Assembly: GCA_964614645.1 (NCBI GenBank)
Contig: CAZTMA010000004.1
Location: 13,555 to 77,554, forward strand
DNA from: an uncultured Anaerolineales bacterium
GTDB taxonomy: Bacteria; Chloroflexota; Anaerolineae; CG2-30-64-16
Length of the DNA: 64,000 bases
Reading direction: 5' to 3'
Below the pieces are notes generated by a model, which saw only the letters and a program-made list of their open reading frames with translations, was not told the origin of the DNA and ran no database searches. Both the position numbers and the translations under genes were made by a program. Positions 28,501 to 39,420 of the stretch are shown here, piece after piece; positions within the stretch are counted from its first letter, which is position 1; every line of letters begins with the position of its first letter.

Positions 28501-30162
<1,662 letters not shown>

Positions 30163-31343: not shown

Positions 31344-33944
31344 TTGCCTTGCGCACGCGAAAGGAGAGTTTCAAATGGGGCTTACAGAGTAACCAGCAGC
31401 ACATCTGATGGGGAGGCAGCGACACGAGGCCAGCGCGCCGTCTATGACCACATCGCGATCGAGCAGAAGTGGCGGGCACGCTGGGCCACCGACGCGCTGT
31501 ATCGTACCCCGGCGCCCGCACCGGACCGGCCCAAGTACTATTGCCTGGATTTCTTCCCCTATCCTTCAGGGTACGGGTTGAGCGTCGGGCACGGCCGCAA
31601 CTACGTGCCCAGCGATGTCATCGCGCGCTTCTATCGGATGCAGGGCCGCGCGGTGTTGCACCCGATGGGCTGGGATGCATTCGGCCTGCCCGCTGAGAAC
31701 GAAGCCATCAAACGCGGCGTCCACCCGCGCGAAACCACCTCGCAATACGCCGCGAACTACCGCCGCCAGATGACCCTGATGGGCTGCTCGTACGACTGGG
31801 AACGCGAGATCAACTCGAGCACGCCCGACTTCTACCGCTGGACGCAGTGGTTCTTCCTGCTGCTGTACCACCGCGGGCTGGCCTATCGCGCCGTGGGCCG
31901 GCAGTGGTGGTGCCCCGGCTGCCAGACTGTCCTGGCCAATGAGCAGGTCGATGCCAGCGGGACCTGCTGGCGCGGGCACACCGGCGTCTACAAGCGCGAC
32001 ATGGAGCAGTGGTATCTGCGTATCACAGCCTATGCCGAGCAACTGCTGGATGACCTGGCCACGCTGGACTGGCCGGAGCACATCGTCGCAATGCAGCGCA
32101 ACTGGATCGGGCGCAGCGAGGGTGTCGAGTTCAGCATGCCCATCCACGATGCCTCAGGTGAGAGCGCGGGGCTGCAAATCGACGTCTTCACCACGCGACC
32201 GGACACCATTCCGGGCGTGACGTTCGTGGCCATCGCGCCGGAGCATCCGCTCGTCGGGCAAGTCATCGACGGCGAAGCGATTCCCGGCGAGCAGCGTGCT
32301 GCGGTGGCTGCCTACCGCGAGCAGGCTGTCCGCCGCAGCGACATCGACCGCATGCAGGGCGACCGCACGCGCGCGGGCGCGTTCACGGGCATGTACGCGG
32401 TCAACCCGCTGAACGGCGAGCGCGTCCCCGTGTACCTGGCCGACTATGTGCTGATGGCCTACGGCAGCGGGGCCATCATGGGCGTGCCCGCGCACGACCA
32501 GCGCGACTTCGAGTTCGCGGTCCAGCACGGCATCCCGGTCAAGGTCGTCGTCGCACCACCCACCGGGGATGTGCCGGGACAGGCCGCCTACACGGAAGCG
32601 GGCATGATGGTGGATGCCGGGGCGTGGACCGGGCTGCCCTCCAAGGAGGCTGCAGTACGCATCACCGCCTGGCTGACCGGCCAGGGCACCGGACGCTCCA
32701 GCGTCCAATACAGGATGCGCGACTGGCTGATCTCGCGGCAGCGGTACTGGGGCGCGCCGATCCCGATTGTCTACTGCGACCGCTGCGGGATGCTACCCGT
32801 GCCTGAGTCCGAGCTGCCGGTGCTGCTGCCGGACATCGAACGCTGGCTGCCGGGTGACGACGGTCGCTCGCCGCTGGCAGGGCTGCCGTCGTTTGTCGAG
32901 ACCCGCTGTCCGCAGTGCGGCAGGCCGGCGCGCCGCGAGACCGATACGATGGACGGCTTTGCCTGCTCCAGCTGGTACTTCCTGCGCTTCGTCAGCCCGG
33001 ACTACGCCGACGGCCCCTTTGACCCGGCAGCCCTGGCGCAGTGGGGCAGCCCGGACATCTACGTTGGCGGTGCGGAGCACGCGGTGATGCACCTGCTGTA
33101 CGCCCGCTTCTGGACGAAGGTGATGGCAGACGCCGGGATCGTGCCGTTCCACGAGCCGTTCCCGGTGCTGCGCAGCCAGGGCACAATGCACGCCCGCGAC
33201 CCGCTGAACGGCGAGCTGCGGCGCATGTCCAAGTCCACGGGCAACGTGGTGACGCCTGACAGCGTGGCCGAGTCGCACGGCGCAGATGCGCTGCGGGTCT
33301 ACCTGCTGTTCATGGCTCCCTTCGAGAACAACACCGTCTGGGATGGGGGGGGCGTCAACGGCGCGCGACGCTTCCTGGAGCGTACGTGGCGGCTGGTGAA
33401 CGAGGTCGCCGGCGCCCGCGCGGCAGGTGACACTGCCCGCTCACCGAACGCTGCGGAGGAGGAACTGGCCCGCGCCGTACGCCGTACGGTGCGCAAGGTG
33501 ACTGAGGACATGGAGACGCTGGCCTTCAACACCGCGGTGGCTGCGCTGATGAAGTGCCTGAACACGATGAACGAGTATCGCGCCGCCCACGGCATCACAT
33601 GGGCGCTGAGCCGGGCCGTACGCGACTTCGTGCTGGTGCTGGCGCCCTTTGCACCCCATATCGCGGAAGAGCTGTCGGAGAGGTTGGGCGAGCCGTACAG
33701 CGTCCACTGCCGGCAGTGGCCCGCTCACGATGACCCGGCCGATGCTGACGGGGAGGGCATCGTCCTGGTCGTGCAGGTGGATGGCCGGGTGCGCGACCGG
33801 CTGGTCCTGGCGGCAGGGGTCCCCAAGGACGAAGTCCGTGCGCGCGCGCTGGGCAGCCCCGCGGTGCAGCGCGCGCTGCGCGGCAGCACGGTGGCACGCG
33901 TGATATACGTGCCGGGTCGCCTGCTGAACATCGTAACGGAATAA
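31344..33944 (+). CDS. leuS: leucyl-tRNA synthetase
   Basis: HMGH-type class I motif, KMSKS (RMSKSTGNVV), CP1 editing domain; only in-frame start before conserved block is TTG 31344. Confidence 0.9.
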   Translation: MPCARERRVSNGAYRVTSSTSDGEAATRGQRAVYDHIAIEQKWRARWATDALYRTPAPAPDRPKYYCLDFFPYPSGYGLSVGHGRNYVPSDVIARFYRMQGRAVLHPMGWDAFGLPAENEAIKRGVHPRETTSQYAANYRRQMTLMGCSYDWEREINSSTPDFYRWTQWFFLLLYHRGLAYRAVGRQWWCPGCQTVLANEQVDASGTCWRGHTGVYKRDMEQWYLRITAYAEQLLDDLATLDWPEHIVAMQRNWIGRSEGVEFSMPIHDASGESAGLQIDVFTTRPDTIPGVTFVAIAPEHPLVGQVIDGEAIPGEQRAAVAAYREQAVRRSDIDRMQGDRTRAGAFTGMYAVNPLNGERVPVYLADYVLMAYGSGAIMGVPAHDQRDFEFAVQHGIPVKVVVAPPTGDVPGQAAYTEAGMMVDAGAWTGLPSKEAAVRITAWLTGQGTGRSSVQYRMRDWLISRQRYWGAPIPIVYCDRCGMLPVPESELPVLLPDIERWLPGDDGRSPLAGLPSFVETRCPQCGRPARRETDTMDGFACSSWYFLRFVSPDYADGPFDPAALAQWGSPDIYVGGAEHAVMHLLYARFWTKVMADAGIVPFHEPFPVLRSQGTMHARDPLNGELRRMSKSTGNVVTPDSVAESHGADALRVYLLFMAPFENNTVWDGGGVNGARRFLERTWRLVNEVAGARAAGDTARSPNAAEEELARAVRRTVRKVTEDMETLAFNTAVAALMKCLNTMNEYRAAHGITWALSRAVRDFVLVLAPFAPHIAEELSERLGEPYSVHCRQWPAHDDPADADGEGIVLVVQVDGRVRDRLVLAAGVPKDEVRARALGSPAVQRALRGSTVARVIYVPGRLLNIVTE

Positions 33945-34027
33945 CCCCGGCTCTCGATTTGACACATCGACGAGGGGAGCCTACACTTGCAACGCAGTAG
34001 CATTTGCAACAAGTGGAGGTTCCCCTC

Positions 34028-34849
34028 ATGTCTCCTCAGTCTGAGTTGCGCGACACCTTGCGCGAGTCCGGCCGGCGGCTGACTGACCAGCGACAACTGC
34101 TGCTGGAGTTGCTCCAGGAGCACGGCGGCCATCTGGACGCGCGCGAACTCTATCGCCTCGCACAAGAGCGTGACCCCCGGCTGAACCTTTCCACGGTCTA
34201 TCGCACGCTCGGTTTGCTGCGCGATCTCGGCCTCGTGGACGAGCAACACCTGGGCGAAGATCACCATCACTATGAATTGAAGGCGCCGGCCACACACTAC
34301 CACCTCGTCTGCCGGACCTGCGGCTCGGTCATCGAGTTCACCAGTCCCTTGATCGAGCAGTTGAAGGAAGCTATCGGGCGAGAACTGGATTATGCGATTG
34401 CCGATGCACAGGTGGACCTATTGGGCATCTGCGCCGCCTGCCGCGCGGCCACCGCTTCGCCGTCGGCTGAGCCTGAGCCCGTGCCGCCGCGCAGGACGGG
34501 CCCGCGTACCCGCATGGTGAATATCCTCCGTCGATCCCTGCACCCTGGAGATGCCGCGCCTACGGAAACACAGCCGAATGCAGCCGGCCAGGACGAGGCG
34601 CTCTCCCTGCGCACGCTGCTCACCGGCAGCTCGGCGCGTGTGGCTGCGCTGACGGGCGGGCATGACCTGGTGGCGCGACTGGCTGCGCTGGGCCTGACGC
34701 CGGGCACGACGCTGGAGGTGGCGCAAAATCCGGGCCAGGGACCGGTCATCGTCCTGGTGCGCGACACGCGCCTGGTGCTCGGCCGCGGAGAGGCGGCCCA
34801 TATCCTGGTCGTACCCACTGAGGCAGCGCATGGCCGACAAGTCGATTGA
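34028..34849 (+). CDS. Fur-family metalloregulator fused to C-terminal FeoA (SH3-like) domain
   Basis: Fur fold: HHHYEL, HLVCRTCGSVIEF, ICAACR (Cys4); linker; FeoA-like LSLRTLLTGSSARVAALTGGHDLVARLAALGLTPGTTLEV...LVLGRGEAAHILVVP; no stop between domains; overlaps feoB start. Confidence 0.65.
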   Translation: MSPQSELRDTLRESGRRLTDQRQLLLELLQEHGGHLDARELYRLAQERDPRLNLSTVYRTLGLLRDLGLVDEQHLGEDHHHYELKAPATHYHLVCRTCGSVIEFTSPLIEQLKEAIGRELDYAIADAQVDLLGICAACRAATASPSAEPEPVPPRRTGPRTRMVNILRRSLHPGDAAPTETQPNAAGQDEALSLRTLLTGSSARVAALTGGHDLVARLAALGLTPGTTLEVAQNPGQGPVIVLVRDTRLVLGRGEAAHILVVPTEAAHGRQVD

Positions 34850-36839
34850 GCCGCGCACCCTCACGGTCGCGCTGGTCGGCCAGCCCAACGTGGGCAAGTC
34901 GATCATCTTCAACATGCTCACCGGTCTCTCGCAGCATGTCGCCAACTGGCCCGGCAAGACCAGCGAGCAGCGCGTGGGAGAGCACCGGCAGAACGGCACG
35001 CTGCTGCGCGTGGTCGACCTGCCCGGCATCTACAGCCTCACGGCCAACTCCGAAGAAGAGCGCATTGCCCGTGACTACATCATCTGCCAGCGGCCGGATG
35101 TCGTGGCAGTGATCGTCGATGCCGCGGCGCTGGAGCGCAACCTCTACCTGCTGGCCGAGCTGCTGGGCCTGCCGATTCCCATCGTCGTGGGCCTCAATCT
35201 GATGGACGTGGCCGCGCAGGAGGGGCTGCAGGTCGAGCCGCACGTGCTGGAGGCCGCGCTGGGCGTGCCGGTGGTGCCGATGGTCGCCACCCGTAATCAG
35301 GGTGTGCGCGAGCTTGTGGAGGCCGCCACCCGGGCAGCGCGCCAGCCGGCCAGCCTGTCTCCCCGGCGGCCGGAGATTCGGGCTGACCACGCGGCCGTCC
35401 TGGCTGAGGTGGGCCGGCTGATTGCCGGTCGCGTGCCCGAGCCTTACCCTGAACATTGGGTGGCGCTGAAGCTGCTGGAAGGGGACGCCGAGATCACCGC
35501 TATGCTGCGGCCGCGGCTGGGCGACCGGTGGGACAGCCTGCACGCGCTGCTGATGCAACACGAGGATGCGGTGCTGGCAGTCGCGAGCGGCCGCTATGAG
35601 TGGATCGGGCGGATGGTGCGCGCGGCGGTCACACGGCCGCGGCCGGGACGGGTGTCGCTCACCAGCCGCATCGACCGGCTGGCCACGCACCCGCTGGTGG
35701 GGCTGGTGATCCTGGCCGCGGTGCTCGGGCTGACGTTCTGGCTGACGTATGCAATCGGCACGCCGCTGCAGGCGTTCCTGGACACGCACCTGGTGCACGC
35801 GGGCGCAGCCTGGGCGCGGGATGCACTGGCCGGCGCGCCGGCGTGGGTCGGCAGCCTCGTGGCCGACGGCATTATCGCGGGCGTCGGGCTCGTACTGACG
35901 TTCCTGCCCATACTGCTGATTTTCTTCGCGGCGCTCGGGTTGCTGGAAGATGTGGGGTACATTGCGCGCGCGGCCTATGTCACTGACCGGTTCATGCACT
36001 TTATGGGGCTGCACGGCAAGAGTTTCCTCCCCCTCTTTCTCGGCTTCGGCTGCAACGTGCCCGCCATCATGGCGGCCCGCACTATCGATTCCACGAAGGC
36101 GCGGCTGCTGACGATCATCCTGGCCCCTTTTGTGCCCTGTCCCGCGCGCATGAGCGTGGTCGCGATCCTGACGCCGATCTTCTTCACTGCACATGCCCCC
36201 TGGGTCGCGCTGGGCCTGATGGCTCTGGCTATGCTGGTGATGGTGTTGGTTGGCCTGCTGCTCCACGAGCTGCTGCTGGGCGGCGAGCACGTCGCCTTCA
36301 TTATGGAGCTGCCGCTGTACCATCCACCCGATGCACGGGCCATTCTGCGCTCCATCTACGAGCGGCTGATTGACTTCCTGCGCGTGGCGGGCAGCATCAT
36401 CCTGATCGTCTCCGTGTTGCTGTGGGGCCTGCTCAGCCTGCCGACGGGGCAGGTGGAAACGAGCTACCTCGCCGCGTTTGGCCGCCTGCTGGAGCCGGTC
36501 GGCGCACTGATGGGCCTGAGTTGGCAGTTGATGGTGGCACTGGTGACCAGCTTCGTCCGCAAGGAGAATGTCATCGCTACCCTCGGCGTGTTGTATGGCT
36601 CGGGGGAGGCCGGGGCTGGGCTGGCGGAGACGCTGACGGGCATCGTGACGCCCGCCACCGCGCTGGCATTCATGGCCGTCCAGATGTTGTTCGTGCCGTG
36701 TGTCGCGACAGTGGCTGCCATCCGGCAGGAGACGCGTAGTTGGGGCTGGACGGCTCTCAGCATTGCGCTGCCCCTGGTCATTTCGCTCGCGCTGGGTACG
36801 GCCATCTATCACGCTGCCAGGTGGCTGCTGACAGTGTGA
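34830..36839 (+). CDS. feoB: ferrous iron transporter FeoB
   Basis: G-domain LTVALVGQPNVGKSIIFNMLTG, DLPG, membrane permease C-terminal region; 669 aa. Confidence 0.9.
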   Translation: MADKSIEPRTLTVALVGQPNVGKSIIFNMLTGLSQHVANWPGKTSEQRVGEHRQNGTLLRVVDLPGIYSLTANSEEERIARDYIICQRPDVVAVIVDAAALERNLYLLAELLGLPIPIVVGLNLMDVAAQEGLQVEPHVLEAALGVPVVPMVATRNQGVRELVEAATRAARQPASLSPRRPEIRADHAAVLAEVGRLIAGRVPEPYPEHWVALKLLEGDAEITAMLRPRLGDRWDSLHALLMQHEDAVLAVASGRYEWIGRMVRAAVTRPRPGRVSLTSRIDRLATHPLVGLVILAAVLGLTFWLTYAIGTPLQAFLDTHLVHAGAAWARDALAGAPAWVGSLVADGIIAGVGLVLTFLPILLIFFAALGLLEDVGYIARAAYVTDRFMHFMGLHGKSFLPLFLGFGCNVPAIMAARTIDSTKARLLTIILAPFVPCPARMSVVAILTPIFFTAHAPWVALGLMALAMLVMVLVGLLLHELLLGGEHVAFIMELPLYHPPDARAILRSIYERLIDFLRVAGSIILIVSVLLWGLLSLPTGQVETSYLAAFGRLLEPVGALMGLSWQLMVALVTSFVRKENVIATLGVLYGSGEAGAGLAETLTGIVTPATALAFMAVQMLFVPCVATVAAIRQETRSWGWTALSIALPLVISLALGTAIYHAARWLLTV

Positions 36840-36919
36840 TAGCCATACCACTTCGACCATTGCCGCAGTAACGCGCACATGCGACGGACGGCTATAGTGC
36901 TTTTCCTCACTTCTGAGTT

Positions 36920-36948
36920 TTGACACAAAAAGCACAATGTGATACCCT
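36920..36948 (+). promoter_or_regulatory. possible promoter for cytochrome gene (-35 TTGACA, weak -10 TACCCT)
   Basis: Perfect -35 hexamer 17 bp upstream of weak -10; sequence only. Confidence 0.25.
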
Positions 36949-37017
36949 TCATGTGGTCCTCATTACATTCAGACCGCAAATCTCCATCCCACTATCCTCA
37001 ATGGAGAGAAAGGCAAC

Positions 37018-39420
37018 ATGAAGAGAACACTCGTGGTCCTCCTTGCATTGGTGGTCGTCTTGACCACCCTCGCGGCCTGTTCAGGCACCGCTGGTCCCGC
37101 CGGCCCTGCCGGCCCGCAAGGTCCTGCCGGTCCCGCAGGCCCTGCTGGCCCTGCCGGTCCTGCTGGTCCTGCAGGCCCCGCTGGCGCGGAAGGCGCAGCA
37201 GGCGTGACGATGGTCGCCGACACGACGACCCCGCCCGAGACCTGCGCGATCTGCCACAAGGGCGCTGGCGAAAAGCACCAGGCGTCCTACGATGACTTGT
37301 ACCAGGACGCCGTGATTCGGGTCACCGATGTGGCTTATGCCTTCACGGCGGCGCCCGATACAACCACCATCACCTTCAAGATGACGAAGAACGGCGAGCC
37401 ATTCGACCCGAAGCAGGCGGATAATATATCCATCTACTTCGTGCCCTACGCGGACGGCAAATTCCAGTTCGACCCGCCCGCCGAACGCGTGTCGTTGAAG
37501 GGAACGCTGGATTCGGATGGCGCCGGCAACGGGACGAGCACGCTGGTCGAGAAGGAAGCGGGCGCCGAGGATTTCGTTGACTACACCGACATCAGCGGCG
37601 TCAACGGCCTCATCGTCATCTACGGCCGCGACGAAACCGTCCAGCGGCTGCCAGGCACGCGCGTCGACCAGAACCGGTTCCCGTTCGCGGCAGTGCTGGA
37701 GACCGGCGCAGGCGTCGACTACGTTTCGCCGGCCAACAACGATGGCTGCGAACTCTGCCACACGCAGCCCTATCTCAAACACAGCTACATCTACGGCCAG
37801 GTCGACAACGACTCTGCCACCGACTTCTACACCTGCAAGGCCTGCCATCTCGACAATGGCACGGGCGAGCACTTCGAATGGCAGCTCCTGGTGGAGGATC
37901 CGGAGCTGGCCGCGCAGTTCCTGGCTGGCGAGGTGGAGCTGACCGAAGAGCAACATCAGCAGTTCGCGTACAACCCGTCCGTGATGAACGACGTGCATAT
38001 GTCGCATGCCATGGAATTCCCGTATCCGCAGTCCATGGCGAACTGCGTCACCTGCCACGAAGGCAAGCTCGACGCCATCCTGACGGACGCAGCCTTCAAC
38101 ATCACGACCTGCCGCAGCTGCCATCCCATGACGGGCGCGAAGGCTGAGTCCGCTGAGGGTGAGGACCCGGCCTACGACACGACCGCTCTGGCGCTGAAGA
38201 CGCTCCTGACCGGCCCGCATGCCGACATGGACCTGGCGACGACCGACTGCTCGACCTGCCACGGCGAAGGCAAGATGGCGGGCACCTGGAGCCTGGTCCA
38301 TACCGGGTATGACGATATGATCTACACGGCGGACGGCATCCGGTATTCCGAGGCCATCTCCGTCACCATCGAGAGCGCCACGTTGGACGGCGATACGCTC
38401 AGCGTGAAGTTCAGCGCGGCCGAATCGCCGGACATCGAAGGCGTGGACGCAGCCGACATCGTACCCACCGTCCTGGTGGGCCTGTACGGCTGGGACACGA
38501 AGGACTTCATCGTCGGCGCGCACGAGCGTCTGTTCGACGATAACGGCGACGGCGCGATCACCAGCGACGATAGCCGGACCCTGGAGTTCGAAGTCGGCGC
38601 CGAGCATCCTCGCATGAAGACGGTCTCGGCCGAAGGTGGCAGCTGGGAAGTCACTGCCGACTTGGCGCCCTGGAAGGACCTCATCGCGGACGGCACTGTG
38701 AAGCGCGTCGAAGTGGGCGTCCTGCCAGCGCTGGTCGTCGATGAGCAGGAACTTGCCATCGATGCGGCCACCAAGACGTTCGACCTGGCCGCGAACGCGT
38801 TCGATGACGAGTACTTCCAGCCCATCGCGGACATCGAACGCTGCGAGAACTGCCATGCGGCGCTCGCCACGAACTTCCACAGCCCGGATTACGGCGGCAG
38901 TGTCACTGCCTGCCGGATGTGCCATGTCACCAAGTCGGGTGGCTCGCACCTGGAGATGCAGTCGCGGTCGCTGGATTCCTATGCGCACGCGATCCACTCC
39001 GGCCAGGCCTTCGACATCGCTGATGTCGACTTCGGCGACCCGGTGCAGGCCCTGGCGTACGAGCACCACATCGGGTTCCCGTATCCGACACATGCCAACA
39101 CGAACTGCGAGTCCTGCCACTTCCCGGGCACCTACGAAGTGCCTGACCAGGCCAAGTCGCTGCCGGGGCTGCTTTCGGCATCCGACGACAACGAGACGCT
39201 GGACCGGGACATCGAGGACGTGCCGTCCTATGTCACGGGGCCGGCCACTCGGGCCTGCGGCGGCTGCCACCGGGCGGAGCTGATCAAGGAAGACAGCGCA
39301 GGTGGGTTCGCCATGCTGAAAGAGCACATGGACATGGGCGGCTACTTCATTGAAGCTGGGGAGAAGCCTGCAGAGACGCTCCAGTCAGTGTTCGACGAGG
39401 TCATGCCGCTGTTCAAGTAA
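37018..39420 (+). CDS. decaheme c-type cytochrome lipoprotein with N-terminal collagen-like (Gly-Pro-Ala)n tether
   Basis: Signal peptide + lipobox LAACSG; ~13 Gly-X-Y triplets; ten CxxCH motifs (CAICH, CELCH, CKACH, CVTCH, CRSCH, CSTCH, CENCH, CRMCH, CESCH, CGGCH). Confidence 0.85.
37083..37197 (+). repeat. tandem 9-bp (GGNCCNGCN) repeats encoding collagen-like GPAGPAGPQ... segment
   Basis: ggtcccgccggccctgccggcccgcaaggtcctgcc... ~12 degenerate 9-bp units. Confidence 0.7.

Follow-up and report, generated by a model that had tools for sequence, protein, structure and literature searches.

The window analyzed here is a stretch of 64,000 nucleotides (nt) of contig CAZTMA010000004.1 from an uncultured Anaerolineales bacterium (Chloroflexota; assembly GCA_964614645.1). 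At positions 34028 to 34849 of its forward strand lies a gene that encodes a Fur-type metalloregulator and a FeoA domain in a single polypeptide, directly ahead of feoB. An earlier, sequence-only reading had described this gene as one uninterrupted open reading frame (ORF) of 273 amino acids (aa), with a Fur fold carrying the motif HHHYEL and two CxxC pairs, a Pro-rich linker, a C-terminal FeoA/SH3-like domain and an overlap with the start of feoB. All of these elements were recovered in our analysis: there is no stop codon within 34028-34849, the motif and the pairs C95/C98 and C135/C138 are present and at least 90% conserved, and the overlap with feoB amounts to 20 nt. The coding features of the locus are the following.

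34028..34849, + strand: fur-feoA fusion gene, 273 aa plus stop, stop-free ORF
34028..34447, + strand: Fur module, residues 1-140, winged-helix DNA-binding and dimerisation domains (Pfam FUR, AlphaFold2, Foldseek)
34448..34600, + strand: linker, residues 141-191, about 50 residues, Pro-rich and predicted to be disordered (AlphaFold2, alignment, substitution rates)
34514..34540, + strand: conserved motif MVNILRRSL, residues 163-171, putative relic N-terminus of an ancestral free 'long' FeoA
34601..34822, + strand: FeoA module, residues 192-265, SH3-like beta-barrel (Pfam FeoA, AlphaFold2, relatives)
34830..36839, + strand: feoB, 669 aa (TIGR00437, 8.2e-163; Pfam FeoB_N, FeoB_Cyto, Gate and FeoB_C)
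34015..34019, + strand: Shine-Dalgarno sequence GGAGG of the fusion gene; its GG is invariant in the aligned orthologous upstream regions
34820..34823, + strand: Shine-Dalgarno sequence GAGG of feoB, inside the end of the fusion gene

Both domains were identified by Pfam far above threshold. The FUR domain (PF01475) spans residues 14-130 (1.2e-31, 109.8 bits against a cut-off of 23.1, profile positions 2-119 of 121), and the FeoA domain (PF04023) spans residues 193-262 (5.4e-18, 65.3 bits against a cut-off of 23, profile positions 2-73 of 74), so that the fusion stands. An alternative in-frame TTG start further upstream would yield an equally stop-free ORF of 281 aa (34004..34849). Since GGAGG precedes the ATG at 34028 and all orthologs align to it, this ATG is the likely start. 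The gene feoB forms an ORF by itself in another frame, and its product has no FeoA domain of its own, with the G domain beginning at residue 12. No further FeoA, Fur or FeoB was found by tblastn in the 64-kb window, nor was a second FeoA present in the 12-kb loci of the fused Anaerolineae clades. Every bacterial feo operon identified in a published survey has FeoA (PMC8749426).

In an alignment to C. jejuni Fur and other solved Fur structures, the Fur module shows the regulatory-site ligands H35, E83, H90, H92 and E103 as well as a structural Cys4 zinc site formed by C95, C98, C135 and C138. These residues are invariant or at least 90% conserved in an alignment of 41 sequences (40 fusion homologs). 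Three of the four ligands of the additional site of H. pylori and C. jejuni Fur are replaced by T89, Y91 and A127, a correspondence of numbering that we presume from the alignment with solved Fur structures. Foldseek comparison with the PDB placed only Fur, PerR, Zur and Mur structures among its top 50 matches. The first of them, 9a4a, models Fur in complex with YlaN, a small protein; it is only a reminder that small proteins can bind Fur directly and serves as background to the coupling hypotheses discussed below. We also observed a His-rich wing motif, HLGEDHHHYE (residues 74-83, window 34247-34276), which occurs clade-wide, including in split and Fur-only members, and is missing from the solved Fur proteins aligned. 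It may form an extra metal site compensating for the missing third site.

AlphaFold2 (AF2), run on the 41-sequence alignment, modelled the Fur part (residues 1-145) confidently, with a predicted local distance difference test score (pLDDT) mostly of 78-97, and residues ~190-265 as a beta-barrel with helices (pLDDT ~89-96). Linker residues 153-187 fall below a pLDDT of 50, the predicted template modelling score is 0.46, and no inter-domain docking between Fur and FeoA was predicted. The sequence and length of the linker are unconserved among homologs, yet its frame is always open. Ratios of nonsynonymous to synonymous substitution rates (dN/dS), which are rough Nei-Gojobori estimates, are 0.05-0.10 for the Fur module, 0.19-0.29 for the FeoA module and 0.43-0.99 for the whole linker; residues 141-160 are close to 1 and residues 161-172 lie below their flanks. 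On these estimates, the two domains appear to be under purifying selection, with the linker free in sequence and its frame held open.

The solved proteins closest to the FeoA module in a PDB sequence search are the FeoA proteins 3e19 (2.7e-9), 2k5i and 2h3j, and the closest database proteins are free FeoAs with 65-79% identity and the same invariant residues. Because its nearest relatives are free FeoAs, we trace the module to the operon's own feoA. An origin from domain 3 of a DtxR-family regulator was discarded, as free FeoAs are nearest and the PDB sequence search contained no DtxR chain. A DtxR protein with twin FeoA domains (P0120) matches the FeoA part at 58% identity, which shows that the FeoA domain is common to these lineages.

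Recurrence and origin of the fusion

The relationship of the fusion to other proteins was analyzed by searching 5.8 billion proteins and clustering at 90% identity. About 50 clusters contain both Pfam domains at 37-100% identity to the query, and the named ones derive from metagenome-assembled genomes (MAGs) of Chloroflexi/Chloroflexota. A scan with one genome per species yielded 26 loci, all but two from Chloroflexota MAGs and mostly from Anaerolineae/Anaerolineales. Thirteen of them (L001-L010, L012, L014 and L015) carry Fur and FeoA in a single uninterrupted ORF with 46-82% identity, and changes of linker length between species are always in frame. In 12 of these 13 fused loci, feoB follows directly (overlapping or less than 70 nt away); the fused gene of L015 has no feoB within 6 kb. 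The same fusion is thus kept in independent assemblies.

As this single ORF persists in independent assemblies, we conclude that the Fur-FeoA fusion is genuine and not an assembly artefact. A sequencing or assembly indel in the GC-rich linker could in principle have merged two genes, since one nucleotide suffices to switch between the split and the fused form and near relatives do have split forms. Moreover, the only identical database protein (P0001) may stem from the same assembly and is therefore perhaps not independent. Against such a pseudo-fusion, assemblies from different studies show the same ORF at the identities given above and with in-frame linker changes, both domains occur together in the ~50 clusters, and the junction in the window has no remnant of a stop/start overlap, with the frame open over ~50 codons. 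We regard an artefact as highly improbable. Of the two findings that would have refuted the sequence-only reading, a stop or frameshift in the linker and a C-terminal region below the FeoA profile threshold, neither was seen.

A search with the FeoA part alone retrieved many free FeoAs of ~114 aa that start with MNVLRR, MNMSRR, MNMFRK or MTDLFRR. The start of these long free FeoAs aligns with MVNILRR of the fusion, at residue 163, and the local dN/dS of MVNILRRSL (0.08-0.6) is below that of the flanking linker. In several cases such a free FeoA and a same-clade Fur of 150-160 aa are encoded on one contig (P0043 with P0125, P0026 with P0136, and L013 with P0135). In L013, which shares 74% identity, fur, feoA and feoB are split, and the overlap between the fur stop and the feoA start (ATGA) reads GTATGAAC; at the equivalent junction, the fused L005 reads GTC ATG AAC in one frame. 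From this pair it follows that a 1-nt indel interconverts the split and fused states.

The motif MVNILRR had also been proposed by the sequence-only reading as an internal start that could produce free FeoA. The ATG does lie at 34514, as given there, but it is not a conserved start: the aligned codon is GTC in L001 and L002, and no Shine-Dalgarno sequence precedes the ATG in the window. We therefore rejected a conserved internal translation start as a general feature. Only in L003 and L004 is the internal start preceded by a plausible Shine-Dalgarno sequence, with AAGGAGGG before GTG ATG in L003.

Other relatives show further arrangements. Separate fur, feoA and feoB genes are found in the Dehalococcoidia loci L020, L021 and L024, and a Fur gene with no feo genes nearby in L011 (with an 86%-identical Fur), L016-L019, L022 and L023. 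In a neighbour-joining tree of the Fur modules, which is rough and has no bootstrap support, split and Fur-only lineages are interleaved among two fused clades. This interleaving implies that the architecture changed state more than once, and the alternation of fused and split forms among close relatives argues that the two modules can work separately.

To cover the wider distribution, a profile search of 1.84 billion representatives was followed by domain hidden Markov models, and the top 150 hits were examined. Among these, about 20 more clusters at 50% identity contain both domains, and wherever the context is readable, these fusions from other lineages adjoin feoB. They include proteins of ~330 aa with the order Fur-FeoA-FeoA in MAGs of Deltaproteobacteria, which carry the NCBI name 'FeoA domain-containing protein'. 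Another hit, P0201 (221 aa, on an ENA metagenome contig of 1.7 kb), shows the reversed order, FeoA (3-72) followed by Fur (96-219), and must for this reason be an independent fusion. Judged from the sequences, the Fur and FeoA combination arose independently several times.

Two of the loci in this set deserve description in their own right. In the Deltaproteobacteria MAG locus L027 (3488-7538; JGI Ga0366832_1000234), a Fur of 157 aa is followed by a Fur-FeoA-FeoA protein of 334 aa and FeoB, and the paired FeoA domains resemble P. gingivalis MntR, which also has two of them at its C-terminus. In L029 (3448-7079; ENA ERZ27256843, k141_4158156), the order is a DtxR-like repressor of ~166-170 aa lacking an SH3 domain, a Fur-FeoA protein, a free FeoA (87 aa as called) and FeoB. 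The Fur-FeoA protein of this locus has 228 aa, a canonical HHDH-type Fur and a linker of ~10 residues. This feo locus accordingly contains two different metalloregulators and two FeoA units.

Promoter and predicted operator of the feo operon

Upstream of the fusion gene, a sigma70-like promoter was found that matches 10 of 12 positions and is the sole hit in 33800-37100. Its elements and the overlapping predicted operator are listed below.

33959..33964, + strand: -35 hexamer TTGACA (promoter scan; TTGAC invariant in 13 aligned orthologous promoters)
33982..33987, + strand: -10 hexamer TACACT, after a 17-nt spacer (promoter scan; TA...T positions invariant in the alignment)
33984..34015, no strand assigned: predicted Fur-type operator, TTGCAA-N11-TTGCAA (33987-34009) inside outer CACTTG/CAAGTG hexamers

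The sequence-only reading had noted an inverted repeat at 33990-34022. The repeat exists, but its coordinates are 33984-34015, and strict complementarity is confined to the outer CACTTG/CAAGTG hexamers. The part conserved across species is TTGCAA-N11-TTGCAA, which has no other exact match in the window and lies at -37 to -43 relative to the start codon in L001-L004, L006, L007, L013 and L015. This core begins at the last base of the -10 box, and the predicted operator overlaps both the -10 box and the predicted transcription start. An operator in this position is the classic layout for repression. As the regulator is encoded by the first gene of the operon, with the operator over the -10 box, autoregulation is predicted. 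In 16 loci, a related 7-1-7 palindrome, TGCAAATnATTTGCA (TGCAAAT-n-ATTTGCA), occurs between -19 and -42 relative to the start codon; L024 has a perfect copy, and the copies of L020-L023 and L025 deviate at one position. Metal-bound Fur would be expected to bind the predicted operator.

Two other interpretations of repeats in the window were considered and set aside. An RNA hairpin formed by the inverted repeat is unlikely, since the left arm of the repeat falls on the -10 box, upstream of the point where the transcript is predicted to begin. A search for further operator copies, and thus for a regulon within the window, gave one hit with one mismatch at 28970, which is at chance level (1.24 expected). 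The operator-like TTCCAAC...TTGCAA at 28970-28992 recurs in L001 (838-860), in both cases ~5.1 kb upstream of the fusion gene, and probably reflects the conservation of coding sequence and not a further operator.

In four Fur-only loci, L023 (5950-7369), L018, L019 and L022, an operator TGCAAATGAGTTGCA precedes fur. A second operator copy, TGCAAGTGCGTTGCA, precedes the downstream gene of an FTR1-family permease (Pfam 2.7e-52) in the same loci.

Proposed function and comparison with known systems

Taking together which domains are present, how well the ligands, the promoter and the operator are conserved, and that the fusion recurs and is linked to feoB, we consider that the protein probably represses its own feo operon in response to iron and is at the same time the source of the only FeoA in the locus, with modules that are still separable. 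The gene would have come about naturally when a single-nucleotide indel at the ATGA stop/start overlap joined fur and feoA, the leading two genes of an ancestral fur-feoA-feoB operon. Loading with Fe(II) would lead the Fur module to form dimers that occupy the TTGCAA-repeat operator across the -10 box and the transcription start, and binding would shut off the synthesis of both the fusion protein and FeoB. The FeoA module, on its flexible tether of ~50 residues, would still serve FeoB as a cytoplasmic SH3-like accessory. With functionally separable modules, the main consequences of the fusion would be a 1:1 production of FeoA and repressor and a dimeric state of the FeoA on offer. We take iron to be the signal because this Fur clade precedes feoAB or, in the Fur-only clade, an FTR1-family iron permease. 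An obligatory interaction between Fur and FeoA is disfavoured by how easily close relatives lose the fusion and by the absence of docking in the model. The sequence-only reading had proposed that Fe(II) sensing and repression would be coupled directly to the FeoA partner; this may be so, but AF2 predicts no docking and fused and split forms alternate among close relatives.

Several points weigh against this autorepressor proposal. The Fur module stays below all NCBIfam equivalog cut-offs (the best being Bacillus-type Fur with 95.4 bits against 220 and PerR with 79 against 180), so homology does not assign its effector as iron, manganese or peroxide. We infer the Fe(II) effector, the metal specificity, the DNA binding and the FeoA-FeoB interaction. 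The operator of the window is a degenerate form of the 7-1-7 palindrome that matches it at 10 of 14 positions, beyond the limit of three mismatches of our search. The statement that the fused FeoA is the only one covers the window and the 12-kb loci, and a second FeoA elsewhere in the genome is possible. Finally, the repeated independent fusion in other lineages is somewhat unexpected for independent modules and hints at a functional interaction beyond them.

One form that such an interaction could take is that the tethered FeoA works for the repressor, like domain 3 of DtxR-family regulators, either by tuning activation (in the apo state it might, for instance, bind the Pro-rich linker) or by mediating dimer-dimer contacts through which several Fur dimers would polymerise along the extended TTGCAA-repeat operator. 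The C-terminus of DtxR-family regulators bears one or two FeoA domains that play a part in regulation. MtsR needs its FeoA domains for repression, and those of neighbouring dimers drive its oligomerisation on DNA, and in DtxR the FeoA domain binds a Pro-rich linker (PMC6698748); the second of the FeoA domains in P. gingivalis MntR (PgMntR) is indispensable to its binding of metal and DNA (PMC4805248). The fusion protein also has a Pro-rich linker, and its operator contains at least two or three TTGCAA-type repeats over ~30 bp. The independent fusions, including the twin-FeoA form that mirrors PgMntR, and the free FeoA beside a fused one in L029 fit the same idea. However, AF2 shows no contact of the FeoA module with the Fur module or the linker, and the Pro-rich segment 141-160 is near-neutral and short or absent in many fusion homologs. 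In addition, the module is 65-79% identical to the free FeoAs of split operons and is the sole FeoA beside feoB, and close relatives of the split and Fur-only types show a Fur module functioning with no FeoA attached to it. We thus think it unlikely that FeoA acts as a regulatory domain here.

Alternatively, the fusion could link the transporter to the repressor, so that uptake and transcription are switched together at the protein level: FeoA engaged with FeoB might keep Fur off the DNA, or DNA-locked Fe(II)-Fur might withhold FeoA from FeoB. Each Fur and FeoA fusion with a readable context immediately precedes feoB, and this holds for at least three unrelated lineages; the reach required could come from the long flexible tether, and by Rosetta-stone logic a recurrent fusion suggests that Fur and FeoA interact or share a step. 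In a natural FeoA-FeoB fusion, the interaction of FeoA with NFeoB is nucleotide-dependent and slows GTP hydrolysis (PMC8980893); through such a nucleotide-dependent contact, FeoA could report the state of the transporter. This proposal is entirely inferential, though, and it is at odds with linkers that vary from ~10 to 60 residues in no obvious pattern, with the ready loss of the fusion among close relatives and with L015, whose fused gene is not accompanied by a nearby feoB. A feedback of this kind appears distinctly improbable to us. For the more general idea that the tethered FeoA is a signalling arm, which couples the transporter state to transcription or the metal state of the repressor to the transporter, our expectation is low. 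If it were true, the role of FeoA for the Feo transporter, which is still debated (PMC8980893), would include regulatory communication with metalloregulators. The Fur-FeoA and DtxR-FeoA proteins would then reflect a general interaction between FeoA and repressors, also between the free proteins. If the modules are simply independent, the gene is a tidy fusion at an ATGA overlap and nothing more.

Returning to the preferred reading of an autorepressor that also supplies FeoA, the protein can be compared with four groups of known systems. With the Fur family (C. jejuni Fur 4ets, M. gryphiswaldense Fur 4raz/4rb3, R. leguminosarum Mur 5fd5 and B. subtilis PerR 2fe3), it shares the two-domain fold, the Cys4 zinc site, the five regulatory ligands and a predicted palindromic operator of the 7-1-7 type over the promoter of iron-uptake genes. 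It differs in the FeoA domain at its C-terminus, the conserved HLGEDHHHYE, the loss of three of the four third-site ligands and the operator half-sites, which are TGCAAAT here and TGATAAT there. Like free FeoA (3e19, 2k5i, 2h3j and B. fragilis 7R7B), the C-terminal module matches the profile from end to end, has the same conserved residues and is encoded immediately upstream of feoB with an overlap. Unlike these proteins of ~80 aa, it is tethered to a DNA-binding repressor and would be dimeric, at 1:1 with Fur.

DtxR, IdeR, MntR and MtsR resemble the fusion as metal-dependent dimeric repressors with a linker (Pro-rich in DtxR) and one or more FeoA-type domains, and a twin-FeoA variant exists on the Fur side (P0235), as in PgMntR. 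In contrast, their DNA- and metal-binding modules are unrelated to Fur, and the FeoA of the fusion is a recent capture of the operon's feoA and not an old domain 3. The DtxR domains Fe_dep_repress (PF01325) and Fe_dep_repr_C (PF02742) were not found in the fusion protein at E-values up to 1, and the sole NCBIfam match to MntR is weak (0.0017) and confined to the FeoA part. The fusion protein is therefore not a member of the DtxR family and resembles its regulators in overall logic only. The natural FeoA-FeoB fusions of Bacteroides and some Firmicutes (PMC8980893, PMC8749426) likewise carry a FeoA flexibly tethered to a partner of the same system and originate from adjacent genes. Here, the partner is instead the upstream repressor, and feoB starts at 34830 in another frame, ahead of the stop of the fusion at 34849.

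That a Fur-FeoA fusion is not a standard architecture, as the sequence-only reading had stated, agrees with the literature searched, in which no paper describes it and FeoA-bearing metalloregulators are known only from the DtxR family. No description was found in full-text literature whose coverage excludes most subscription journals, so that absence is unproven. Papers on Feo contain only generic mention of FeoA with 'an additional domain' or fused to 'non-Feo-related proteins' (PMC8749426, PMC8980893). Automatic annotation gives some homologs both functions, as in the JGI name 'Fe2+ or Zn2+ uptake regulation protein/Fe2+ transport system protein FeoA'.

The occurrence of the fusion in at least three lineages, together with unfused close relatives, provides natural fused/split pairs for comparing repression and uptake. 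It also extends the rule of a metal-dependent repressor with a FeoA/SH3 domain from DtxR to the unrelated Fur family, which suggests convergent selection for attaching such a domain to metalloregulators. In addition, the uncharacterised Chloroflexota Fur clade and its operator TGCAAAT-n-ATTTGCA are usable to predict iron regulons of Anaerolineae and Dehalococcoidia, two groups with very few cultured or genetically tractable members.

Finally, we made two observations on neighbouring architectures and genes. In an Acetothermia MAG (L025, DQCH01000134, 3704-4381), a same-clade Fur carries a C-terminal extension of ~90 residues with no Pfam match, and its ORF overlaps the start of a feoB-like gene; the place of the fusion in the operon is here taken by a second type of Fur-X protein. 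In the window itself, feoB is directly followed by a gene (37018-39420, + strand) for an 800-aa multihaem cytochrome with MtrC/MtrF-like domains II/IV (Pfam 6.9e-24), whose N-terminal signal-like segment precedes a collagen-like (GPA)n repeat (at threshold for Pfam Collagen). It is 92% identical in L001 and L002 and conserved there only. A functional link of the fusion to this cytochrome or to the upstream leucyl-tRNA synthetase gene was dismissed, as synteny is limited to the two closest relatives. The cytochrome may serve in extracellular electron transfer in an Anaerolineae.

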